From an uncultured Gammaproteobacteria bacterium (GTDB lineage Bacteria; Patescibacteriota; Patescibacteriia; Magasanikbacterales; UBA922), in contig CAYQNA010000005.1 of assembly GCA_964418775.1 (NCBI GenBank), forward strand, positions 3,066 to 67,065: a DNA stretch of 64,000 nucleotides, given 5' to 3'. The notes beneath the pieces are model-generated. The model saw only the letters and a program-made list of their open reading frames with translations, was not told the origin of the DNA and ran no database searches. The translations under genes were made by a program, and so were the position numbers. Positions 3,834-48,047 of this stretch are shown here, one piece after another. Every line of letters starts with the position of its first letter. Positions within the stretch are counted from its first letter, which is position 1.

Positions 3834-5666
3834 ATGTGCGGCATTATTGCATATGTGGGGAATGAGCAGGCGCTGCCGATTTTGGTACGGGGACTCCGCC
3901 GTTTGGAGTATCGCGGCTATGACAGTGCGGGTGTGGCTGTGGCCGAGCGCGGTGAATTGCAGCGCGTGCGGGCCGTTGGGAAAATTGATAATTTGTCCGC
4001 AGCTGTAAAAGAGGTGAATGTGACTGGTACGATTGGGATTGCGCATACGCGTTGGGCCACGCATGGCGGTGTGACTCAAGAAAATGCACACCCACACGCA
4101 GCTCTGGGCGGCAAGTTGATGATTGTTCACAACGGAATTATCGAGAATTACCGCGAATTGCGTCAGGCTTTGGAAAAAGAAAATCCAGCGCTTGAATTTA
4201 CGTCGCAGACCGATACCGAAGTGCTCGCGCATTTGATTGGCAAGCATTATCAGGGTGATTTGCGCATGGCGGTGGAAACCGCGCTTACGCATGTGCGGGG
4301 CACCTATGGTGTGGTCGCGATGCACGCGGACCATCCTGATCAATTGGTGGCGGCGCGGTTGGGAAGTCCGCTGGTGATTGGAATTAAAGATGGTGAATAC
4401 TTTTTGGCCAGTGACGCGACGCCGATTTTGGCTTACACCAACAAGGTGATTTTTTTGAACGATGGTGAGGTGGCCGATGTGCGCCGCAGTGGTTTGAATA
4501 TCTATACGATTCGCGACGAAAAAGTTGCCAAGCATGTGGAGGAAATTTCGTGGGACGAGACGCAGGCCGAAAAACAGGGCTTTCCACACTTCATGCTCAA
4601 GGAAATTTTTGACCAGCCCAATGTTTTGCAGGATGCAATTCGCGGCCGTTATAATTTGGAAGACGGAACCGCGCGTTTGGGTGGGCTCAACATGACCGAG
4701 GAGCAAATGCGCCGCGTGAATCGCGTGATATTTTTGGCGTGCGGCACAGCGTCATATGCGGGCCTGGTTGGAAAATATGCGTTTGAGCGTTTGGCTGGAA
4801 TTCCAGCCGAGGTTGAGGTAAGTAGTGAGTTCCGTTATCGCGATCCGGTAATTGACGAAAATACACTCGTGTTTGCAGTGTCACAATCAGGCGAAACTGC
4901 GGATACACTGGCAGCGGTACGCGAAGCCAAGCGTCGCGGGGCCTTTGTGCGCGGGATTGTAAATGCGATCGGCTCCACGATTGCGCGCGAAACCGATGGT
5001 GGTACATACATTCATGCTGGCCCAGAGCTGGCTGTGGCCTCGACCAAAGCCTACACTAACATGTCCGTGGTTATGATGTTGTACGCCCTGCAATTTGGGC
5101 GTTCGCGCCGCGTGTCAGTGGCCACAGGCCAGCGTTTGTTGCAAGCACTCGAGCAGGTGCCGCAAAAAATGAGTGAGATTTTGGCGCAGAGCGATACGAT
5201 CAAAACCATGGCCGAAGAATTAGTGAAATACAAAAATTGTTTTTTCTTGGGTCGGGGCATCAATTTCCCAATTGCACTCGAAGGTGCGTTAAAATTAAAA
5301 GAAATTTCGTACATTCACGCCGAGGCCTATCCAGGTGGCGAAATGAAGCATGGTCCAATCGCCTTGTTAGCGCCTGAATTTCCCGTTGTCGCCATCATGA
5401 CCAAGGATCAACTGTACGATAAAATGCGTAGCAACGTGGAGGAGGTTCGGGCGCGCAAAGCCCCGGTTTTTATGGTCGCCACGCATGGTGATGAATCAGC
5501 GCGCGAACTAGCCGAACACGTCATGTTTGTGCCCGAAACCATGGAGCTCTTGCAACCGCTCGTTACAACCTCGGCCCTGCAGCTCTTTGCGTATCACTGC
5601 GCCGTCGCTCTTGGCCGCGATGTTGATCGGCCGCGCAATTTAGCCAAGAGTGTAACCGTTGAATAA
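3834..5666 (+). CDS. glmS: Glutamine--fructose-6-phosphate aminotransferase
   Basis: 610 aa; N-terminal MCGIIAYVG (Ntn Cys), two SIS domains, C-terminal VE ending. Confidence 0.95.
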   Translation: MCGIIAYVGNEQALPILVRGLRRLEYRGYDSAGVAVAERGELQRVRAVGKIDNLSAAVKEVNVTGTIGIAHTRWATHGGVTQENAHPHAALGGKLMIVHNGIIENYRELRQALEKENPALEFTSQTDTEVLAHLIGKHYQGDLRMAVETALTHVRGTYGVVAMHADHPDQLVAARLGSPLVIGIKDGEYFLASDATPILAYTNKVIFLNDGEVADVRRSGLNIYTIRDEKVAKHVEEISWDETQAEKQGFPHFMLKEIFDQPNVLQDAIRGRYNLEDGTARLGGLNMTEEQMRRVNRVIFLACGTASYAGLVGKYAFERLAGIPAEVEVSSEFRYRDPVIDENTLVFAVSQSGETADTLAAVREAKRRGAFVRGIVNAIGSTIARETDGGTYIHAGPELAVASTKAYTNMSVVMMLYALQFGRSRRVSVATGQRLLQALEQVPQKMSEILAQSDTIKTMAEELVKYKNCFFLGRGINFPIALEGALKLKEISYIHAEAYPGGEMKHGPIALLAPEFPVVAIMTKDQLYDKMRSNVEEVRARKAPVFMVATHGDESARELAEHVMFVPETMELLQPLVTTSALQLFAYHCAVALGRDVDRPRNLAKSVTVE

Positions 5667-6639
5667 TATGAAAAAAATAGTTGTTATCGGCGGCGGGACC
5701 GGCACAGTGGCGGTGCTATCGGGCCTAAAACAATTCAATGATTATCAACTAAGCGTGATTGTAAGCATGACTGACGATGGTGGTAGCAATGCGGTCGTGC
5801 GTGATGAATTTGGCTTGTTGCCATTGTCTGACGTGCGCAAATCAATTATTGCGTTGGCCGAAAATGACAGCCAGTTGCTGCGCGAATTGTTTACGTATCG
5901 ATTTTCCAAGGGTGACGGACTGTCAGGCCACACGCTCGGTAACTTAATGATGATGGCAGCCGCAGATATTAGCGGCTCCGAGGAAACCGCGATTAAACGT
6001 TTATCAGTGCTGTTTAATGTTAAGGGACAAGTAATTCCCGTCACGCTTGAACAAACGCGTTTGGTGGCCGAGTACGCTTCGGGTGCACGGGTTGAGGGTG
6101 AGCATTTAATTGATGAACCAGAGGTAGATCCAGGACGCATTAAAAATTTATCACTTTCGGTTGCAGTCAACGCAAACCCCGCTGCACTCAAGGCGATTGC
6201 CGAAGCAGATGTGGTAATTATTGGCCCGGGTGACTTGTATACTAGTACGCTTGCTAACATTATTGTGCCTGGCGTTGCTGCCGCAATTCAGAATAGTCGT
6301 GCCCAGGTTATTTTTGTGAATAACTTAATGACCAAACGTGGTCAAACGCAGGGCATGAGTGCGCGGGATTTTGTGCAAGAGATCACTGCCTATGTTGGCC
6401 GCACGCCCGATGTGACTGTGCTCCACAATGGTGATTTTCCGGACGCAATTTTGCAAAAATATATGGTGCGGGGCGAGTATCCGATCGTCGATGATTTGGC
6501 CGCTAATCCTCACGTTGTGCGCACAGATGTCGCTAGCGATACTGAAACCAGGCCAGATTCGGGCGATACACTCGTGCGCAGTTTGATTCGCCATGATGCA
6601 AATAAATTGGCCGCCGCCCTTCGAAAAATTATCAATTAA
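5659..6639 (+). CDS. YvcK/CofD-like gluconeogenesis factor (UPF0052)
   Basis: 326 aa; KIVVIGGGTGTxxxLSGLK N-terminus characteristic of YvcK/CofD family. Confidence 0.8.
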   Translation: MNNMKKIVVIGGGTGTVAVLSGLKQFNDYQLSVIVSMTDDGGSNAVVRDEFGLLPLSDVRKSIIALAENDSQLLRELFTYRFSKGDGLSGHTLGNLMMMAAADISGSEETAIKRLSVLFNVKGQVIPVTLEQTRLVAEYASGARVEGEHLIDEPEVDPGRIKNLSLSVAVNANPAALKAIAEADVVIIGPGDLYTSTLANIIVPGVAAAIQNSRAQVIFVNNLMTKRGQTQGMSARDFVQEITAYVGRTPDVTVLHNGDFPDAILQKYMVRGEYPIVDDLAANPHVVRTDVASDTETRPDSGDTLVRSLIRHDANKLAAALRKIIN

Positions 6640-12405: not shown

Positions 12406-13559
12406 ACCTATACGAATTTGAAGGTAAACAATTGTTTGCTAAACATGGTTTGAAAATACCCCGCGGTGTAGTGGTGCGTCGTGGCGATGATGTGGCGGCG
12501 AAGTATACTGAATTGGGAGTCGCGGAGGTGGTTGTTAAGGCGCAGGTTTTGTCGGGCAAGCGCGGGAAAAATAATGGCATTAAATTTTGCAACTCAGTTG
12601 CATCGGTAGTGGAGGCCTGTGAGGAATTGTTTGGTAATGCAATTCGGGGTCAACAAGTGGCCGCGATTTTGATTGAAGAAAAGTTGCAAATTGCCGAGGA
12701 ACATTATGTTTCGGTGACGTATGATACCAATCGACGCCAGCCAATGTTGATTTATTCCAGTGCTGGTGGGGTGGATATTGAGGACGTGCCGGCCGAAAAA
12801 ATCATGCGCGTGGATTTGAATATTCGCAGTGACAAGTTACCCGAAGCCCAGGCGGGTTGGGATTTTGCACAAAAATTGTACGCTGTCTTTAAAGCCGAGG
12901 ATGCGCGTGTGGCCGAAATTAATCCACTCGTAAAAACTACGAGTGGGGAGTGGGTCGCGGCTGATGCCAAGATTGCGTTGGATGATGATGCGTTTTACCG
13001 CCACAAAGAATGGGAAACGCTCGAACCGCGCACTATGCTGGGTCGTGCGCCAACGGAGCGCGAAGTAGCGGTGAAAAAAATTGACGAAGGCGAGAATTAT
13101 TATCGTGGTACTGCTGGTAAATATATTGAAATGGATGGCGATATTGGTTTGATTTTAAATGGTGGTGGGGCCAGCATTGCGAACATGGACGCGTTGTTAG
13201 CTGCGGGTTTGCAGCCAGCGAATTATACAGAATATTCGGGCAATCCACCACGCGAAAAGGTGTACCAGTTGGCGAAAATTGTGTTGTCAAAACCAGGTTT
13301 GCGCGGGCTCTGGATGTGTGGTGTGGTGGCAAATTTTACCAACATCAAAGACACATTCATGGGCATTGTCGATGCGCTCGACGAAATCAAACCGCAGTAT
13401 CCAATTGTGGTGCGCCGCGATGGGCCGGAAAGTGCGGAGGCCAAACAATTAATTTTGGAGTGTGCGGAACGCAACCACTTGAATCTCAAGTGGTTTGGCA
13501 AAGAAACATCCATGGCTGACACGGCGCAAGTTTTGGCCGAAATGGTTAATGCCCAATAA
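12402..13559 (+). CDS. sucC: ADP-forming acyl-CoA synthetase beta subunit (SucC family; candidate citryl-CoA synthetase large subunit)
   Basis: ATG at 12402; MNLYEFEGKQLFAKHGLKIP ATP-grasp N-terminus identical in style to SucC. Confidence 0.8.
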   Translation: MNLYEFEGKQLFAKHGLKIPRGVVVRRGDDVAAKYTELGVAEVVVKAQVLSGKRGKNNGIKFCNSVASVVEACEELFGNAIRGQQVAAILIEEKLQIAEEHYVSVTYDTNRRQPMLIYSSAGGVDIEDVPAEKIMRVDLNIRSDKLPEAQAGWDFAQKLYAVFKAEDARVAEINPLVKTTSGEWVAADAKIALDDDAFYRHKEWETLEPRTMLGRAPTEREVAVKKIDEGENYYRGTAGKYIEMDGDIGLILNGGGASIANMDALLAAGLQPANYTEYSGNPPREKVYQLAKIVLSKPGLRGLWMCGVVANFTNIKDTFMGIVDALDEIKPQYPIVVRRDGPESAEAKQLILECAERNHLNLKWFGKETSMADTAQVLAEMVNAQ

Positions 13560-31216: not shown

Positions 31217-31235
31217 AATGCAACTAAGTTGCACT
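31217..31235. promoter_or_regulatory. Putative Zur box 1 (AATGCAACTAAGTTGCACT)
   Basis: 9-1-9 palindrome, one mismatch to consensus; 17 bp upstream of TTGACA (31252-31257). Confidence 0.55.
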
Positions 31236-31290: not shown

Positions 31291-31309
31291 AATGCAACTA
31301 AGTTGCTTT
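31291..31309. promoter_or_regulatory. Putative Zur box 2 (AATGCAACTAAGTTGCTTT)
   Basis: lies just downstream of predicted -10 TACAGT (31275-31280), upstream of the His/Cys-repeat protein gene. Confidence 0.55.
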
Positions 31310-31378: not shown

Positions 31379-32926
31379 ATGGCCTGGCACGGCCGTTTTT
31401 TAATCATGGCAATTATTGGGCTGACCAGTTTCTGGGCGCAGTCTGTTTTGGCTTTAAATGTATTTGTCGATGCCTGTCAGCCAGTTTTTAAGGGAATTCA
31501 AATCAAACGCAATTTTTCTAATACGTGGCAAACATTAACAAACGGCTGTCGTGATGCCGGGTATGGTTTACGAGATTATACATTACAGTGCCTTTCTAGC
31601 ACGCAATACCGGGTAGAGTGGAGTGAGTGTGTGGTGCCGACAGAAACTCAAACTACGCCACAAAATACGCCTGTAGTAAGTGTGCCGGCGCCAGTGAATG
31701 TTCAGCCAATTATTCAACCAGTGGCAATGCCATCTCCAGTTGAAACGTTTGACTCGCACGCTTTAGAGGCAGTAGCGGGCACGTCAGTGAGCAATGCCTG
31801 TAGCGGACATGGCTGGGTGCATGGCGATCATTGTCATTGTGATGCGGGATATTATGCCGCTGGTTTGGAATGCCGGGCATTACCTACAACTTCTGTTCCG
31901 ACCCCTGTATCTGTTGTGGCTTCAGCCTCATCACATAATCAGCCTGTTACGCAAGTAGCTGTTCAGACTAATACGCAATCAGTGGTTGTGGCGTGTAGCG
32001 GACATGGTTGGGTTCACGGAGACCACTGCCACTGTGACGCGGGGTATTATGCCTCCGGATTACAGTGTTTAACTCTGCCTTCATCTACACCGGTTCAGTT
32101 AGTAAATGCTCAGGCGGCTGTAAAAAATACAACCCCGACTGTTAAGAATTCCGGGTCAACGACTGGAGCCGCTAAATCGACTGTCGGAAACACAAAAACA
32201 GCCCTAGAATGCAATGGCCATGGCTGGATTCATGGCGATCATTGTCATTGTGATGCGGGATATTATGCCTCTGGCACACAATGCCTGGCTTTGCCGGGCA
32301 CAGTTTTAAATAGTACTAATAACAAAACCGAATCAATTAAAAGCTCCACAAAAAGCACTATTGCCACTGCTGTAAAAAAACCATCAAATGAGATGGTTCC
32401 TGTTCAAACTACCACTCCAATTATTGAATGTAATGGCCACGGCCATTTACATGGTGACCAGTGTCACTGTGATAACGGATTTGTAGCCGAAGGTCAGAGC
32501 TGCGTAATAATGCCACAACGAGAAGCGGTCGTGTTTAAGGCCATAAATGGCCATTCTTATAAAGACGGAGATTTTTGGGTGCGACCACTAACATTGTTTG
32601 TCTATGATTTTGAGGGTAAATCAATTGTGCATTGGGAGGGTGCGCAAGGGGACTATGATGGGTTTTTAGTGTATGTCAAACCTGGGAGTTTTGCTGGTCC
32701 ACTTGACGCGTATCAGCCAATTTGGCTTAGCCGACGTCAATATTCATTTGCTTATGATTCGGCCCGTTCTGGTCAGCACACAATGTATGTTTTTCCGTAT
32801 ATTACCTTAACTAATGGGGAAGTCCGTCGTTTGGAACCAGGCGGGGTTATTTCTTGGATTCAACCTGGCCAGACTCCGAAACTTTCGGGTTGGCAGATTT
32901 TTTTGAATATTTTGAAAGGAAATTAG
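31379..32926 (+). CDS. Secreted His/Cys-rich tandem-repeat protein (putative metal/zinc-binding)
   Basis: 515 aa; signal-like N-terminus; four ~65-aa repeats each containing C(S/N)GHGWxHGDHCHCDAGYYAxGxxC; C-terminal ~130-aa domain. Confidence 0.6.
   Translation: MAWHGRFLIMAIIGLTSFWAQSVLALNVFVDACQPVFKGIQIKRNFSNTWQTLTNGCRDAGYGLRDYTLQCLSSTQYRVEWSECVVPTETQTTPQNTPVVSVPAPVNVQPIIQPVAMPSPVETFDSHALEAVAGTSVSNACSGHGWVHGDHCHCDAGYYAAGLECRALPTTSVPTPVSVVASASSHNQPVTQVAVQTNTQSVVVACSGHGWVHGDHCHCDAGYYASGLQCLTLPSSTPVQLVNAQAAVKNTTPTVKNSGSTTGAAKSTVGNTKTALECNGHGWIHGDHCHCDAGYYASGTQCLALPGTVLNSTNNKTESIKSSTKSTIATAVKKPSNEMVPVQTTTPIIECNGHGHLHGDQCHCDNGFVAEGQSCVIMPQREAVVFKAINGHSYKDGDFWVRPLTLFVYDFEGKSIVHWEGAQGDYDGFLVYVKPGSFAGPLDAYQPIWLSRRQYSFAYDSARSGQHTMYVFPYITLTNGEVRRLEPGGVISWIQPGQTPKLSGWQIFLNILKGN
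31795..32500 (+). repeat. Four coding tandem repeats (~200 bp period) of the His/Cys motif
   Basis: tagcggacatggctgggtgcatggcgatcattgtcattgtgatgcgggatattatgcc recurs with variants at ~31801, ~31999, ~32213, ~32425. Confidence 0.7.
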
Positions 32927-32951: not shown

Positions 32952-32970
32952 AATGCAACCCAGTTGCATT
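32952..32970. promoter_or_regulatory. Putative Zur box 3a (AATGCAACCCAGTTGCATT)
   Basis: immediately follows TTGACA at 32945-32950. Confidence 0.55.
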
Positions 32971-32986
32971 AGAATGGCAACAGACA

Positions 32987-33005
32987 AACGCAACTAAGTT
33001 GCATT
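32987..33005. promoter_or_regulatory. Putative Zur box 3b (AACGCAACTAAGTTGCATT)
   Basis: abuts RBS GGAGGGG (33006-33012) of the downstream lipoprotein gene. Confidence 0.55.
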
Positions 33006-33016
33006 GGAGGGGTCTC

Positions 33017-34219
33017 ATGAGGGGTATTCAGATCATCGTCCTCGCCATCGTTGCCATGGTCCTCGGCGCCTGCAAGGGTGCTGTCGTGACCAAGTCAGTT
33101 GTCTGTGAGCGTGGTAACTCCGCGCTGGATGCGGACTGCGATGGACAAGACGACGACTGCGACGGCGAGACGGACGAGGGCTTCGAGCCCACGTCCACGC
33201 AGTGCGGCCAGGGTGGCTGCGAGGCCAGCGGGGAGACCCGCTGCGTCAATGGCAAGAAGGTCAACTCCTGCCGTCCGGGACAGAAGCACGACGAATCGTG
33301 CAACAATCAGGATGATGACTGTGACGGCCAGACTGACGAAAACGTCGACCGTCTATGCATGGTCTCGTGCACATCGGGTCGCGAACAATGTTCGGCCGGG
33401 CGGTGGGGCGCGTGTGACGCGCCTGGTCCTCAGGCAGAGGTCTGCGGGGACGGCATCGACAACGACTGCAACAATATCACGGACGACGGCTGTCCGCCGC
33501 CCGCACCCAAGTGCGGGGACGGCACGTGCAGCGAGCCGACTGAGTCTTGCGATTCGTGTCCGTCGGATTGTGACGTCTGTCCCACCGAGTGCGGTGATGG
33601 CACGTGTGACACGGTTCAAGGTGAAAGCAGCCAACAGTGCGTGGTCGACTGCCCCGAGCAGTGCGGCAACGGCTACTGTGGTCAAGCCGAGGACGCGGGC
33701 AACTGCAGCATCGATTGTCCCGCGACGTGCGGAGACAAAATCTGTAGTGCGACCGAGTCCGCCAAGTCCTGTCTGGACGACTGTCCCGTGACCTGCGGCG
33801 ACGGTGTCTGCACCACGTCTCAAGACGAGGACGCAGGCAGCTGCGCCAAGGACTGCGCGGACGAGTGCGGCGATAACATCTGCGGGGTGACCGAAAATAC
33901 CTGTACGTGCGACGACTGCACTGGCGCGTGCTGCGGCGACGAGGTCTGCGATGCGGACGAGGGCTACGAAACGTGCCCGTCCGACTGCAAGAAACCGACC
34001 TGTGAGGCCGACAGCGACTGCGGACCGACCCCGGTCGTGGGGCAGTTCACCCTGAACTGGTGCCACCACTGGGCCGAGCCGCGGCATTGCCACGGCGTCG
34101 TGGACTGCTCGCAGGACGCGAGCAAGTGCGACGACCCCGAGCTCGTCGGTCCGTACGCCGGCAAGACCGCGTGCCAGGAGCCCTTCCCGGGCTTCAAGGC
34201 CTGCGTCTTGATCGAATAA
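33017..34219 (+). CDS. Cys/Asp-rich repeat lipoprotein encoded by GC-rich (foreign) DNA
   Basis: ORF track 32999-34219 (TTG); likely ATG 33017; MRGIQIIVLAIVAMVLGAC lipobox; >12 repeats of C-x2-DCP-x2-CGDGxC type and DDDCDG motifs; GC and third-position G/C far above surrounding genes. Confidence 0.6.
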   Translation: MRGIQIIVLAIVAMVLGACKGAVVTKSVVCERGNSALDADCDGQDDDCDGETDEGFEPTSTQCGQGGCEASGETRCVNGKKVNSCRPGQKHDESCNNQDDDCDGQTDENVDRLCMVSCTSGREQCSAGRWGACDAPGPQAEVCGDGIDNDCNNITDDGCPPPAPKCGDGTCSEPTESCDSCPSDCDVCPTECGDGTCDTVQGESSQQCVVDCPEQCGNGYCGQAEDAGNCSIDCPATCGDKICSATESAKSCLDDCPVTCGDGVCTTSQDEDAGSCAKDCADECGDNICGVTENTCTCDDCTGACCGDEVCDADEGYETCPSDCKKPTCEADSDCGPTPVVGQFTLNWCHHWAEPRHCHGVVDCSQDASKCDDPELVGPYAGKTACQEPFPGFKACVLIE

Positions 34220-34963: not shown

Positions 34964-35404
34964 ATGAAAACTGACCATATCCTAACCACCCTTAAGGCGC
35001 GAGGCGAGCGCTTAACTCCAGCCCGTCGCTTGATTATTGAATTATTTGTGAAGCAGGACGCGCCAGTATCAGCCGATGATATTCGCGCTGCTCTGACTAA
35101 GAAAAAAGTAACGGTCAATAAAACAACCGTGTATCGTGAACTAGAGTTTTTGTTGGCGGCTGGTTTTATCCGTCCAGTATACCTCAATGACCAGCGTAAA
35201 TATTATGAGTTGGCGTTAGTGGACAGTGAACACCATCATCATGTAGTCTGTCGCGATTGCGGGCGTGTCGAAGATGTGGAGGTTGGGGGCGTGGAAAAAT
35301 TACTAGCTCCACTGGAAAAAAAGCTGGCTAAAAAAATTAAATTTGCCGATATTCGGCACAGCTTGGAGTTTTTTGGATGGTGTGGTAGGTGTCGTCGTTC
35401 TTAA
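34964..35404 (+). CDS. zur: Fur-family metalloregulator, probably Zur
   Basis: 146 aa; wHTH N-domain, HHHH and CxxC...CxxC metal sites; sits directly upstream of znuACB. Confidence 0.75.
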   Translation: MKTDHILTTLKARGERLTPARRLIIELFVKQDAPVSADDIRAALTKKKVTVNKTTVYRELEFLLAAGFIRPVYLNDQRKYYELALVDSEHHHHVVCRDCGRVEDVEVGGVEKLLAPLEKKLAKKIKFADIRHSLEFFGWCGRCRRS

Positions 35405-35424: not shown

Positions 35425-36393
35425 ATGGCTAATAAATTTTTGGCCACGGTTGGAATTTTTGCAATTATTGCGGCAATTGGTTGGACTGCCACGCACCGTA
35501 CTCAAACCGTTGATAAATCGGTTGGAGTTGTTGACGACACCAAGATTACTGTTGCCGCCACTTTCTATCCCTTGGCATATTTGGCCGAGCAAGTTGGTGG
35601 GGGGCAGATTACCGTTATTAACGCGACACCAACCGGCGTTGAGCCGCACGATTATGAACCAAGCCCGCGTGAGTTAGTCAAAGTGGGCGAGGCTGATGTT
35701 TTGCTGATTAACGGTGCTGGTCTGGATCCATGGGCCGAAAAGGCCAGTGTGGATTGGCAGAAAAACGGGCAGCGTGTACTGGTAATGAGTGAAGTGTTGG
35801 AAACACTGCCAACTGCCGAGGAGCATGAGGAAGAACACGAAGACGAACATGCTCATGAACATGGTGCGTATGACCCACATTTTTGGCTTGACCCAGTGCG
35901 CGCACGCCAAATGATTGGGGTGATTCGCGACGCCTTAATTCAAGCTGATCCTACACACGCTGACCAATACCGCCAAAACGCTGTGGAGGCAGTGGGGCGC
36001 ATGTCTAAGCTCGATGATGATTACAAAACTGGTCTAGCCAGCTGCCAACAACGCGAAATTGTGGCGGCCCATGATGCGTATAATTATTTGGCCAATCGTT
36101 ATGATTTGGAATTGCACGCCATCGCGGGTCTGAGTCCCGATGCGGAGCCATCGGCGCGCCGTTTGGCTGATTTGGCAAATTTGATAAAGGCGCGTGAAAT
36201 CAGTACGATTTTTTTTGAAACGTTAGCTTCGCCAAAATTAGCAGACACATTGGCTCGTGAAACTGGGGCCAAAACTGCGGTCCTAAATCCGATTGAGGGT
36301 TTAACTGCCGAGCAAATAGTTGGTGGTAAAAATTATGATATACTAATGCGAGAGAACTTAGCGCAATTGCGTCTCGCCCTGGTATGCCAATAA
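35425..36393 (+). CDS. znuA: Zinc ABC transporter substrate-binding protein
   Basis: ORF track 35389 (GTG); ATG 35425; cluster-9 SBP with His/Glu-rich loop EEHEEEHEDEHAHEHG. Confidence 0.8.
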   Translation: MANKFLATVGIFAIIAAIGWTATHRTQTVDKSVGVVDDTKITVAATFYPLAYLAEQVGGGQITVINATPTGVEPHDYEPSPRELVKVGEADVLLINGAGLDPWAEKASVDWQKNGQRVLVMSEVLETLPTAEEHEEEHEDEHAHEHGAYDPHFWLDPVRARQMIGVIRDALIQADPTHADQYRQNAVEAVGRMSKLDDDYKTGLASCQQREIVAAHDAYNYLANRYDLELHAIAGLSPDAEPSARRLADLANLIKAREISTIFFETLASPKLADTLARETGAKTAVLNPIEGLTAEQIVGGKNYDILMRENLAQLRLALVCQ

Positions 36394-44901: not shown

Positions 44902-46065
44902 ATGGCCAAGGGACCTAAAAAAACTGTGCGTGCGGCTGTGGCCGTGCCAGTGCGCGTACAGACCGTGGCCACGACCAAGTTGGCTCTAGCTCTCACTTTT
45001 TTAGGAGCTTCGTTTTTAGCTGCTTCGGCAGCGGTTGGCAGCAAACCTACGGTTCAAACTTCAGCTGCGCGGACGATTACACCAGTTGGTGTGACCATGT
45101 TGAGTCCAACGGCCGCAGACCGCACGTTGTTTGTGCCAGTTGGCAAAACTGCGACAGATGGCGCGCCAATTATGAGCGTAACACTGACCGCACCAACGGC
45201 GAGCAGCGCCCAATTACGCGCCCTAGCATTCAATGTTATTCGCGCAACTGAAACTGGCTGGGCTGGCGACCCAACTGGGTGTGGCATTGCCAAATATAGC
45301 CTAACGTCAAACGACGGCGCATTACTGGGCTTGGCTACTAAACAAATTGGTGACAGTTCAGCCGTTCGCTTCACACTCGAATCGCCATTGGTTATTGCTG
45401 GTTCGGCTTCTTTGCAACTCCGTCCACTCGAATTTTTCCCTCAGGCTACCGAAGCCAGTGCGGTGCGCGCGCTGCATGATTGCCGCTTGCTCCCGGTTTT
45501 GTCGCCAAGCAATATTGATTTAGTTGGGGCTAATAACCAACCATTGCCTGTGTTAAATGGTCCGGTTTACGGGGCTTTAACGCAGATTGCGGCTGTGCAA
45601 CCACAAGTAAGCTGGTCAACCAATGTACCAGCCACACTAGTATCTGATACTGATAAAAAAATTACGCTCGCGCGTTTTGAATTTAAAAATACGACTGGCG
45701 CTGAACAAACAATTGATATTGCATCACTGCCACTGCTCGTCCGTACTAATGCACAAGCCACTGGTTCGCTTACATTTTCATTAACTCCAGATAATGGTGC
45801 CACACCTTTTGTACAAACACTTTTGCCCGAAGAATTACGCGAGCAAAATACTTTGAGCATTTACACCCCTGCACCAAGTGCATGGACAATTAAAGCAAAT
45901 GAAATCGTAACCTTTACGTTGCAGGCTCAGGGTTCGCTTCAGGGTCAGCCAGGCTGGTACGCCTGCACTTCCATTCCCGCTGACTCACAAATGGCTTGGG
46001 ATTTAGGCGACCAAGCACACACTGCCACCATCCAATTGCCCGAGTTCTGTGTGGTAAAGCCCTAA
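44902..46065 (+). CDS. Secreted hypothetical protein
   Basis: 387 aa; N-terminal signal/TM; Ala/Thr/Ser-rich, no motif. Confidence 0.4.
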   Translation: MAKGPKKTVRAAVAVPVRVQTVATTKLALALTFLGASFLAASAAVGSKPTVQTSAARTITPVGVTMLSPTAADRTLFVPVGKTATDGAPIMSVTLTAPTASSAQLRALAFNVIRATETGWAGDPTGCGIAKYSLTSNDGALLGLATKQIGDSSAVRFTLESPLVIAGSASLQLRPLEFFPQATEASAVRALHDCRLLPVLSPSNIDLVGANNQPLPVLNGPVYGALTQIAAVQPQVSWSTNVPATLVSDTDKKITLARFEFKNTTGAEQTIDIASLPLLVRTNAQATGSLTFSLTPDNGATPFVQTLLPEELREQNTLSIYTPAPSAWTIKANEIVTFTLQAQGSLQGQPGWYACTSIPADSQMAWDLGDQAHTATIQLPEFCVVKP

Positions 46066-46082
46066 TTTTAGTTTAAAGAGAG

Positions 46083-46107
46083 CCGACGTTGACCCGTCGG
46101 TTTTTTT
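46083..46107 (+). terminator. Rho-independent terminator
   Basis: ccgacg ttgacc cgtcgg + T7. Confidence 0.6.
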
Positions 46108-46143
46108 GTGTTAAACCATGTGCAGCGCAATGGAGGCGCTGAC

Positions 46144-46623
46144 ATGGCAGGCAAACGAAGTTATGTCGCAGTTGTTCGCCGTGGCGACACGGTGGATAAC
46201 AAGTTCACGGTCCGCGGAAGTGCGGAGATAGAGACCTTGGCCCAGCGACTGAGGGAGAAGACTGCTCAAAAGGCCGTCAACTTCTTTGTGGTGCGTCCGG
46301 ATGCTGAGCGCTACGCGCCCAGCACGTACATGCTCACGCGACTGCTGGACGGAAAGTCTTACATCGAGTTGGGTCTGAATCATGACGAGACGGACCCGCT
46401 CAACGACAAGCTCCCGTTCCCAGGCGGCTGGGGCCCGCTCTTTGGGAAGGCGGGCTACTGCATGGTCGTCGTGGCGCCCGGCGGCACCCGCCTGGTGCGT
46501 TGCGTCCAGTCGCTCAGCAAGGAGTTTGGGATCAACCTTCCCGACCTCAACGCCTTCTCGTTCCAGCGCATGGGGCACGGCTACTTCCTGGACCTGCGCC
46601 AGCGGACACTCGTCGAGATCTGA
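46144..46623 (+). CDS. Hypothetical protein on GC-rich insert
   Basis: ORF track 46108 (GTG); ATG 46144 MAGKRSYVAVVRRG; ~60% GC with G/C third positions unlike flanks; followed by ggtcagcgcg...cgcgctgacc hairpin. Confidence 0.5.
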   Translation: MAGKRSYVAVVRRGDTVDNKFTVRGSAEIETLAQRLREKTAQKAVNFFVVRPDAERYAPSTYMLTRLLDGKSYIELGLNHDETDPLNDKLPFPGGWGPLFGKAGYCMVVVAPGGTRLVRCVQSLSKEFGINLPDLNAFSFQRMGHGYFLDLRQRTLVEI

Positions 46624-46710
46624 TGCCTGGACTCAGGCGGCGGCGCCGGCACACGGCAGGGGTCAGCGCGGTTAAGCCTACTGCGCTGACCTCACTGACT
46701 CTTTGGATAT

Positions 46711-46739
46711 TTGACAAAATTGGTTCGACATGGTAATAT
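46711..46739 (+). promoter_or_regulatory. Promoter of nusA (TTGACA-17-TGGTAATAT extended -10)
   Basis: sequence match to sigma70 consensus ~80 bp upstream of nusA. Confidence 0.5.
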
Positions 46740-46817
46740 TTGACTATTAATGGTAGCTATAACATAGCTGCTTTTTTTATAGCCAAATTTTAACTTGTTT
46801 ATTATTTTCTAGTAGGT

Positions 46818-48047
46818 ATGTCCGAGATTACAAAAGCGATTCAGATCTTGTGCGATGACAAGGGTCTGCAGTACGAAACCGTGATGGAAGCACTCGAAGC
46901 CGCGCTCGCTGCGGCCTATCGCAAGGATTTTGGTAACCGTCAGCAGAACATCAAAGTTAAATTTGATGCCGAAACCGGTGATATGAAAGTGTGGGATGAA
47001 AAAATCGTAGTTGCCGATATTCCAGCCGAAGAATTGGAAGCGGCTCAGGAAAAATTAGCCGAACGTCGCGAAGAAGCGCGCAAAGAAGGTCGTGAATTAA
47101 CTGATGAGGAAATTACCGACCTCGTGCAGTTCAACCCTAAGACCGAAATCATGTTGGCCGAAGCGCAAGCAATTAAAAAGAAAGCTGAAATTGGCGAGAC
47201 TTTGATTATTGATTTGCCGGTGCCTGGGGACTTTGGTCGCATGGCGGCGCAAACTGCCAAGCAGGTAATTATTCAGAAAATTCGCGAGGCCGAACGCACA
47301 AGTGTAATGGCTGACTTTAAACAGCAAGAAGGTACTATTGTGCATGGTTTTGTACAACGCTTTGACCGCAGTGGTGTTTTGATTATTGACCTCGGCAAAG
47401 TGACCGGTATTGTGCCACCAGAACACCAAATTCGTCGCGAACACTTTAAGCTCGGCACCCGTACCAAATTCTACGTGGTGTCCGTGGGCATGGGCGTGCG
47501 TGGTCCAGAAATTATTTTGTCTCGCGCAGACAAGCGCATGGTCGAAGTGATTTTTGCTCAGGAAATCCCCGAAATTTCGAGTGGTGACGTGCAAATCCGC
47601 GGTATTGCGCGCGATGCTGGTGGTCGTTCCAAAGTCGCGGTTTCGACCGAAGACGACGGCATTGACCCAATTGGCGCTTGTATTGGTCAGCGCGGCAGCC
47701 GCATCACCACAATTATCGAAGAATTGGGTGGTGAAAAAGTGGACATTATCCAATACAGCCCTGACGCCGTGGCTTACATTAAGCAAGCCTTGGCTCCAGC
47801 CAAAGTTAGTGACGTGGTTTTGAATGATGCCGACAAAACTGCGGTTGCACAAGTCGTACCAGATCAATTCTCACTCGCGATTGGTCGCGAAGGCCAGAAC
47901 GTTCGCCTTGCCTCGGACCTCACAGGTTGGAAAATCACAGTCCAGGAAATTGGCGGTACAGGCTTAAGTACTGACGGTGAAACTGAATTGCCAGTAGCTG
48001 AAGCACAAACTGAGGCTGAAACTGTTACCGAAACAGCCGCTGAATAA
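46818..48047 (+). CDS. nusA: Transcription termination/antitermination factor NusA
   Basis: 409 aa; N-terminal domain, S1, two KH domains (GxxG), acidic C-tail. Confidence 0.9.
   Translation: MSEITKAIQILCDDKGLQYETVMEALEAALAAAYRKDFGNRQQNIKVKFDAETGDMKVWDEKIVVADIPAEELEAAQEKLAERREEARKEGRELTDEEITDLVQFNPKTEIMLAEAQAIKKKAEIGETLIIDLPVPGDFGRMAAQTAKQVIIQKIREAERTSVMADFKQQEGTIVHGFVQRFDRSGVLIIDLGKVTGIVPPEHQIRREHFKLGTRTKFYVVSVGMGVRGPEIILSRADKRMVEVIFAQEIPEISSGDVQIRGIARDAGGRSKVAVSTEDDGIDPIGACIGQRGSRITTIIEELGGEKVDIIQYSPDAVAYIKQALAPAKVSDVVLNDADKTAVAQVVPDQFSLAIGREGQNVRLASDLTGWKITVQEIGGTGLSTDGETELPVAEAQTEAETVTETAAE

Follow-up and report, generated by a model that had tools for sequence, protein, structure and literature searches.

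The block upstream of nusA and its single gene

We analysed a 64,000-nucleotide stretch of DNA, here called the window (contig CAYQNA010000005.1 of assembly GCA_964418775.1, from an uncultured bacterium placed by GTDB in the Magasanikbacterales). Between p387, a gene encoding 387 amino acids at 44902–46065 (stop codon at 46063–46065), and the nusA promoter lies a GC-rich block of approximately 640 bp, in which orf159 is the sole real gene. The block was delimited as an insertion/deletion by comparison with L003, the closest species representative, whose NusA is 92% identical to that of the window overall and 94.5% identical across the N-terminal 217 amino acids. L003 retains the gene order p255, AAA-ATPase gene, p387, nusA and yidC but lacks the orf159 block: its p387 stop codon is followed by six nucleotides (accact) and then by ATTTGACAAAATT...TGGTAATAT, the sequence that starts at position 46709 of the window. 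An uninterrupted junction in a relative, as envisaged by a sequence-only reading of this region, is therefore present in L003. The features of the block and of the adjoining nusA upstream region are collected in Table 1.

The protein encoded by orf159 begins MAGKRSYVAVVRRG... and is one residue shorter than the 160 amino acids first reported. Four homologues of 156–157 amino acids, with 52–60% identity to the window protein, were detected among approximately 15 billion proteins, one by an exhaustive phmmer search with the window protein and three more by an indexed profile search. The plus-strand frame of orf159 is open in all five family sequences, the ratio of nonsynonymous to synonymous substitution rates (dN/dS) within the family is 0.15–0.38, and divergence is highest at the third codon position, followed by the first and then the second. 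By these sequence comparisons, orf159 is a real gene under purifying selection, and because of this selection its protein is expected to be functional.

Some candidates were rejected. An antisense open reading frame (ORF) of 155 amino acids (46111–46578, minus strand) is open only in the window and is broken by stop codons in four of the five sequences. Four further matches from the exhaustive search (P0003–P0006) are long repeat proteins, matched only through multiple occurrences of a short motif (LTRLxDGxSY, FPGGWG), and were regarded as spurious.

The gene order around the homologue in L083 is AAA-ATPase gene, p387, ORF and nusA, with flanks of approximately 86% nucleotide identity to the window (82–100% across the flanking genes). 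In L084, the ORF is followed by nusA (NusA 88.5% identical to that of the window) and the upstream neighbour differs. The L085 contig spans the ORF, both ends of the block and the start of nusA, while the short L086 contig ends soon after the ORF stop codon, before nusA, so that only the 5′ end of the block is visible. Thus, the homologues with flanking sequence (the three contigs L083, L084 and L085) all occupy the same site upstream of nusA. Conservation of the protein at this position across the lineage, which the sequence-only reading had named as a finding that would speak against its inference, was observed in part, in that the L083 and L084 proteins are 52–59% identical to the window protein and share the same non-coding ends. 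For a wider view, the 80 best NusA matches in GTDB, nearly all labelled Magasanikbacteria or Patescibacteria, were used as a panel of relatives; orf159 was absent from these 80 other Magasanikbacteria nusA loci. A scan of JGI metagenomes for orf159 gave no new contig, and protein and DNA-motif scans of IMG/VR detected nothing.

The GC content of the 400-bp segment 46200–46599 is 62.5%, compared with 45–50% on either side. The gene itself has 61.3% GC and a GC content at third codon positions (GC3) of 0.787, against a mean of 0.484 (standard deviation 0.054, maximum 0.620) for the 59 other genes of the window (z = 5.6), and its codon choices are improbable under the usage of the host (likelihood z = −4.2). 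The homologous ORFs are likewise GC-rich relative to their flanks (57–65% versus 35–50% GC), with GC3 values of 0.68–0.71. The only other GC3 outlier in the 64 kb is a gene at 33017–34219 (GC3 0.791, z = 5.7), here called the 33-kb island. Synonymous-codon preferences of orf159 and the 33-kb island are correlated (r = 0.85), while each correlates poorly with the rest of the window (r = 0.12). The highly expressed native genes groEL and nusA show no GC3 shift. These results bear out the earlier description of a GC-rich stretch with G- or C-ending codons and the signature of the 33-kb island. The orf159 block looks compositionally foreign.

Table 1. Features of the orf159 block and the adjoining nusA upstream region (coordinates are those of the window)
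Feature	Coordinates	Strand	Basis
Whole inserted block (approximately 640 bp)	46066..46708	+	Comparison with the L003 empty site
5′ boundary hairpin followed by T7; intrinsic terminator, probably bidirectional; loop carries a nearly invariant TTGACC	46078..46107	+	Folding, homologue comparison
Putative weak orf159 promoter: −35 TTGACC (46089–46094), 17-nucleotide spacer, extended −10 TG-t-TAAACC (46109–46117)	46089..46117	+	Conserved letters
Conserved 5′ leader GTGTTAAACCAnnTGCAGCGCAATGGAGGCGC; Shine–Dalgarno GGAGG at 46132–46136, 7 nucleotides before the ATG	46108..46143	+	Sequence identity
orf159, 159 amino acids; cytoplasmic; predicted histidine-phosphatase (PGAM/SixA-like) fold; RRG (R12-R13-G14), Pro112	46144..46623	+	Open frame, dN/dS, AlphaFold2, Foldseek
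Conserved 3′ element: small hairpin 46645–46657, 14-bp GC-rich hairpin 46659–46693, tail CACTGACTCTTTGG	46640..46708	+	Folding, conservation
nusA promoter: TTGACA, 17 nucleotides, TG-g-TAATAT; host sequence, right-hand boundary	46711..46739	+	Promoter scan; kept in L003, L083, L084 and L085
Terminator-like hairpin followed by T7 in the nusA leader, outside the insert	46752..46779	+	Pattern recurs in approximately 10 distinct Magasanikbacteria loci

Conserved ends and the predicted protein fold

The strong terminator reported earlier at 46083–46107 was confirmed as a hairpin with the core CCGACG/CGTCGG and a run of seven T residues; together with an upstream A-rich tract, the stem extends to 11–13 bp. 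With its GC-rich stem-loop and U-tract, this element has the form of a Rho-independent terminator, and its minus-strand reading was also flagged by the scan. A hairpin precedes the T-run in all five homologous sequences, with different stems (CCGACG/CGTCGG, CTTGCCC/GGGCAGG and GCCC.CTG/CAG.GGGC). The TTG of the −35 element, the T-run and TG.TAAACC are invariant in the homologue alignment, which is consistent with a 5′ terminator that also serves as a weak promoter of the extended −10 type. Downstream of it, a small hairpin (CAGCGC/GCGCTG) encloses the Shine–Dalgarno sequence of orf159. The 5′ leader of the window is identical to that of L083 at 37 of 39 positions and to that of L084 at 35 of 40, compared with differences of approximately 40–60% at neutral sites of the same pairs.

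At the 3′ end, the hairpin noted earlier just before the nusA promoter is present as GGGGTCAGCGCGGT/ACTGCGCTGACCTC, a 14-bp stem with a folding energy of −34.4 kcal/mol (z = −3.9) that is invariant in the consensus fold. It is followed by the tail CACTGACTCTTTGG and not by a U-tract, and it therefore differs from a canonical intrinsic terminator; of the two terminators attributed to the block, only the upstream one stood. The 3′ element of the window is identical at 61 of 72 positions to that of L083 and at 58 of 72 to that of L084. An Rfam scan of 45900–46900 gave nothing convincing. Between the window and L083, nucleotide identity is 82–100% in the flanking genes, 50–73% in the interior of the ORF and 85–95% at the ends of the block, and the nusA promoter and leader are as well conserved as these ends. 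Because the regulatory DNA of nusA is equally conserved, the ends of the block are most simply explained as regulatory elements under purifying selection and not as recombination sites; judged from conservation and folding, they are probably regulatory.

The expression of orf159 may be pictured as follows. The upstream hairpin and T-run would stop transcription of p387 and thereby insulate orf159, and the weak sigma-70-like promoter that appears to be embedded in the terminator, together with GGAGG, would drive orf159 as a unit of its own. The stable GC-rich hairpin would close this unit 18 nucleotides before the −35 box of nusA.

Three other readings were considered and rejected. An imperfect 14-nucleotide direct repeat (GTTAAACCATGTGC at 46110, GTTAAGCCTACTGC at 46671) could be taken for attL/attR, but its 11 matches of 14 are expected by chance within 640 bp, and the empty site lacks the conserved sequence that extends beyond them. 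The 3′ hairpin is not an integron attC site, being a plain 14-bp stem with GTTAAGC in the loop and with no integrase or array nearby. For a diversity-generating retroelement or hypermutation, neither a reverse transcriptase nor a template repeat was found nearby. The block does resemble integron gene cassettes in having a promoter-poor ORF followed by a conserved imperfect hairpin, and GTTRRRY-like sequences (GTTAAAC and GTTAAGC) near both ends. In contrast to such cassettes, GTTAAGC lies in a hairpin loop and not in an R′ core, the R″/L″/L′/R′ architecture is absent, there is a single genomic site with no integrase and no array, and conserved sequence extends beyond the putative cores and is missing from the empty site.

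The orf159 protein had been described as an orphan without a recognizable motif. At the level of sequence this description stands: neither the window protein nor any of the five members gave a significant sequence-family match in Pfam, PHROGs, NCBIfam, PADLOC or PDB sequences. The sole PADLOC match was insignificant (E = 0.05), and none of the five members matched any Pfam or NCBIfam model at E ≤ 10, including His_Phos_1 and SixA, or any PDB sequence. At the level of predicted structure, the description no longer holds. AlphaFold2 modelling on the five-sequence alignment gave an alternation of strands and helices with a predicted local distance difference test score (pLDDT) of 74 and a predicted template-modelling score (pTM) of 0.76; the model from the single sequence was poor (pLDDT 41). 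In a Foldseek search against the PDB, more than 100 matches had E < 1e-3, and the best 50 by E-value all belong to the histidine-phosphatase superfamily, with template-modelling (TM) scores of 0.45–0.59. The PDB matches include the MutT1 C-terminal domain, PGAM5, Plasmodium and Trichomonas PGAM, SixA (2rfl) and alr0221 (3f2i). Against BFVD, the top 14 matches were all histidine phosphatases, with TM scores of up to 0.67. The protein is thus predicted to have a histidine-phosphatase fold of branch 1, of the PGAM/SixA-like kind.

The motifs of the family were compared with those of this superfamily. The end of β1 reads VAVVRRGD...T..G, and hhalign pairs AVVRRGD...LT..G with FIMRHGD...LTTNG of Escherichia coli SixA (sequence checked as 1ujb). 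The position of the RHG motif is occupied by R12-R13-G14 in all five sequences, so that the phospho-accepting histidine is replaced by arginine. After β2 the family has RPDxxR(F/Y)AxST, to be compared with SPxxRAxxT of the superfamily. After β4, SHGG is found in L084, L085 and L086, APGG (Pro112) in the window and SQGG in L083, the position of the second catalytic histidine having been mapped from predicted secondary structure and not by structural superposition. R12 and R56 are invariant in the five members and, lying where such residues are expected, are candidates for the phosphate-binding arginines of the family. An invariant loop of 27 residues (75–101; GL.HD..DP.ND.LP.P.GWG, with H80, D81, D84, N87, D88 and W96) is specific to this family.

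Compared with branch 1 of the histidine phosphatases (cofactor-dependent PGAM, PGAM5, SixA and the C-terminal domain of mycobacterial MutT1), the orf159 protein shares the predicted α/β fold and the order of strands and helices, the N-terminal motif xxVRxGD...LT..G that ends β1, the arginine after β2 and, in three of the five members, S-H-G-G after β4; its size is similar to that of SixA, at approximately 160 amino acids. It differs in having arginine for the RHG histidine in all five members and proline (window) or glutamine (L083) for the second histidine, in its own 27-residue loop, and in escaping detection by Pfam, NCBIfam and PDB sequence profiles. Catalysis in the superfamily involves phosphorylation of the RHG histidine (PMC3866925). 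Since this histidine is replaced by arginine in all members, the orf159 protein would not, by the family's defining chemistry, be a working histidine phosphatase. The purifying selection and the invariant 27-residue loop together argue for a retained function. Superfamily members that lack both histidines act as ligand binders (PMC10728186). The flea salivary proteins XcAP-1/2/3 described there resemble the orf159 protein in having lost both catalytic histidines while retaining the fold under selection, but they belong to branch 2 (acid phosphatases) and are eukaryotic, secreted ligand binders. We tentatively suggest, as the likeliest action, that the orf159 protein binds a phosphorylated ligand or protein through an arginine pocket (R12, R13 and R56) without canonical phospho-histidine turnover. 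The loop at 75–101 would add specificity, or might possibly substitute a catalytic residue; an alternative action would be catalysis by a relocated nucleophile, H80 or H145.

Origin and history of the block

The N-terminal NusA sequences of the window and L003 are 94.5% identical, those of the window and L084 88.5% and those of L003 and L084 86.2%, while the outgroups are at 68–78%. By these distances, L084, which carries the block, branches outside the pair formed by the window and L003. As the right-hand junction is the same in the window, L083 and L084, parsimony favours a single old insertion that was later deleted from the L003 lineage. At third codon positions, GC-to-AT changes outnumber AT-to-GC changes by 15:3 in the L084–L086 lineages and by 13:4 in L083. 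The GC excess of the orf159 family is decaying, with amelioration under way, as predicted for an ameliorating foreign gene of high GC content; from a starting GC3 near 0.9–0.95, the observed synonymous divergences would lead to about the present values of 0.68–0.79.

Taken as a whole, the block is probably an old, partly ameliorated foreign single-gene island that forms its own transcription unit and encodes a degenerate protein of the histidine-phosphatase fold. A high-GC island would have entered the intergenic space just 5′ of the nusA promoter in the ancestor of a small subclade of Magasanikbacteria, which belong to the candidate phyla radiation (CPR)/Patescibacteria, and would then have been inherited vertically, losing its GC excess slowly and being deleted in at least one sister lineage (L003). 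The earlier proposal of a horizontally acquired cassette is thus upheld with respect to foreign composition and absence from a near relative, and not with respect to its implied recency, since homologues lie at the same site in L083 and L084. Horizontal transfer into Patescibacteria is common and mostly not recent (PMC12455944). The block resembles the acquired genes and small islands described there: it is one gene, deviating in GC content from the streamlined CPR genome around it, patchy among relatives and not recent. It differs from them in that no donor or partner genome was identified, in its size of only 640 bp, in its well-conserved regulatory ends and in its position directly upstream of the promoter of an essential gene.

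Several observations weigh against this reading. No donor and no orf159 homologue from outside the clade were found, and foreign origin rests on composition and patchy distribution. The lineage of the window shows no net GC decay (13:11 for GC-to-AT versus AT-to-GC), and the third-position changes were polarized by parsimony, which overcounts changes from common to rare states. The promoter of orf159 is a guess, having a −10 element without the final T and not being called by the promoter scan. The fold assignment rests on a model from five sequences in a family that no sequence profile detects, and the hhalign probability for the match to SixA is only 5.7%. There is a single empty-site genome, L003, and the relationships rest on partial NusA sequences. 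Finally, the window and L083 differ at four-fold sites of orf159 by 0.61 ± 0.07, compared with 0.38–0.46 in flanking genes, and the L083 protein is nearer to those of L084–L086 (64–69% identity) than to that of the window (59%). The window and L083 share derived states, including the loss of His112, and for this reason we read the long branch of the window as more probably acceleration after the loss of catalytic residues than allele replacement.

Alternatively, the block could be a site-specific mobile or exchangeable gene cassette whose hairpin ends serve as recombination sites, or as homology arms for the swapping of alleles or cargo upstream of nusA. This is unlikely, even though a number of features would suit it: the ends are 81–95% identical while the cargo is 50–73% identical, the block is polymorphic for presence and absence, the tree of the ORF does not fully agree with the flanks, the window allele has elevated synonymous divergence, and the upstream neighbour in L084 is different. 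Moreover, three relatives have unrelated, GC-rich orphan ORFs immediately 5′ of nusA, and 7 of the 21 GC-rich islands detected across 858 kb of relatives are within 1.7 kb upstream of nusA, compared with approximately 2.9 expected, although the loci are not independent; an insertion hotspot at this position is weakly supported. However, no recombinase or integrase was found within about −3 to +10 kb of the block, and none of the hallmarks of mobility (integrase, tRNA target, direct repeats) was found at the locus, where the neighbours are genes for an AAA ATPase, p387, NusA and YidC. The two end sequences, GTGTTAAACCANNTGCAGCGCAATGGAGGCGC and GGTCAGCGCGG...GCGCTGACC, are each present once in the window and recur neither in the 80 related loci nor in IMG/VR, and neither attC-like architecture nor a target-site duplication is present. 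The ends differ in the other GC-rich ORFs found upstream of nusA, the right-hand junction that the window shares with L083 and L084 is compatible with one ancestral event, and the equal conservation of the nusA regulatory DNA means that conserved ends need no recombination. We regard as highly doubtful the broader proposal that the block exemplifies exchangeable single-gene cassettes of CPR bacteria, of an undescribed kind, that target a ‘safe harbour’ between a terminator and the nusA promoter, with hairpin ends as recombination sites and GC-rich orphan cargoes (as in L004, L016 and L025) swapped among lineages.

A native, vertically inherited and fast-evolving gene, whose GC richness arose in place, either through selection on mRNA structure or through GC-biased gene conversion at a site prone to recombination, would account for the position kept across species, the lack of a donor, the GC excess in every lineage with balanced changes in that of the window, and the GC3 of both islands, which tracks that of the host at a roughly constant offset. 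This origin seems quite improbable: GC-to-AT changes are in significant excess in four of the five lineages, indicating decay from a higher start, GC3 is not shifted in highly expressed native genes, groEL and nusA among them, and the gene is confined to a tiny subclade, being absent from the approximately 80 other Magasanikbacteria nusA loci.

Recent acquisition by the window genome, from a high-GC donor that also supplied the 33-kb island, is very unlikely and has been largely refuted by the finding that other species carry diverged homologues (52–59% identity) at this site, bounded by the same ends. Such an acquisition would agree with a GC3 of 0.79 in both islands, their shared synonymous-codon usage (r = 0.85), the absence of the block from L003 and the occurrence of homologues of the 33-kb island protein mostly in high-GC Myxococcota. 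Against this, synonymous sites between the orf159 homologues are saturated or nearly so, and the 33-kb island is also old, with a 46%-identical, GC-rich syntenic copy in L088. The codon likeness between the two islands is what any two high-GC sources would give, and orf159 has no homologue outside its small clade. An assembly chimera or contaminating high-GC read-through, for which the metagenome source and the abrupt switch of composition at the block edges might speak, can be practically dismissed given the identical junction in three independent assemblies (NCBI, Logan and ENA), the homologous junctions in contigs from other samples and the host-like AT-rich regulatory sequence at the block edges.

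Neighbouring features, the 33-kb island and implications

The GC-rich ORFs upstream of the nusA promoter in the panel of relatives are located at 4882–5673 (plus strand) in L004, 1654–2538 (minus strand) in L016 and 4050–5837 (minus strand) in L025, and none has a Pfam match. In the window, the hairpin and T7 run of the nusA leader follow the nusA promoter and precede the start codon. The corresponding pattern, TAGCT-N6-9-AGCTG-N-T6, is found directly 5′ of nusA, for example at 5938–5961 in L003, 5787–5810 in L004 and 2733–2756 in L016. From its sequence this element looks like a conserved leader attenuator, and it could possibly serve NusA autoregulation. On the other side of the block, the p387 protein has no Pfam match, and its hydrophobic N-terminus resembles a signal or anchor sequence. 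Its evolution is much faster than that of its neighbours, with 87% identity to L083 and 50% to L003, against 88–98% for the neighbours; the block therefore adjoins a variable gene.

The 33-kb island has a 46%-identical homologue in a distant relative (L088, 799–2004), with a GC3 of 0.555 compared with approximately 0.30 in the flanks. The neighbourhood in L088 matches that of the window, with a p515-like gene, X, a p185-like gene, and genes for Fur and ZnuA. The remaining homologues of the island, most of them annotated in Myxococcota, are cysteine-rich proteins of the MopE-related or ‘metal-binding-motif’ kind. Because syntenic, diverged homologues exist in relatives, the 33-kb island and the orf159 block are, on comparative evidence, both old residents.

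Genes for a Fur-family regulator (34964–35404) and ZnuA (35425–36393) adjoin the 33-kb island. The palindrome TGCAAC-N3-GTTGCA occurs five times in the window (12588–12602, 31219–31233, 31293–31307, 32954–32968 and 32989–33003), compared with 0.48 expected. Two copies precede the gene for a 515-amino-acid EGF-like protein and two lie in the promoter of the cysteine-rich gene at 33017–34219, and the motif is conserved in L088. This palindrome is a candidate Zur/Fur operator; if this is true, the ‘foreign’ 33-kb island would be wired into a metal regulon of the host. The 515-amino-acid protein (31379–32926), beside the island, contains repeated teneurin-type EGF-like modules (CxGHGxxHGDHCHCDxGY), with matches to Pfam EGF_TEN (E = 2e-16, below the curated cut-off of the model) and EGF_Teneurin (E = 5e-7, above the cut-off). 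Such modules are unusual in a CPR bacterium, and the histidine-rich repeats suggest metal binding.

The case of the orf159 block is tidy and fairly ordinary, and neither the age of its foreign signature nor the fold assignment alters current understanding. It does illustrate that, in a streamlined CPR genome, strongly anomalous composition is not necessarily the sign of a recent transfer. Here the foreign signature has persisted through divergence at the species level and continues to decay, a reason for caution with GC-based island callers. The ‘orphan’ orf159 becomes a structurally assigned protein, which the model places in a tiny, clade-restricted branch of the histidine-phosphatase fold. 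With its catalytic histidines lost and its sequence under purifying selection, this protein is a candidate bacterial pseudo-phosphatase or phospho-ligand binder.

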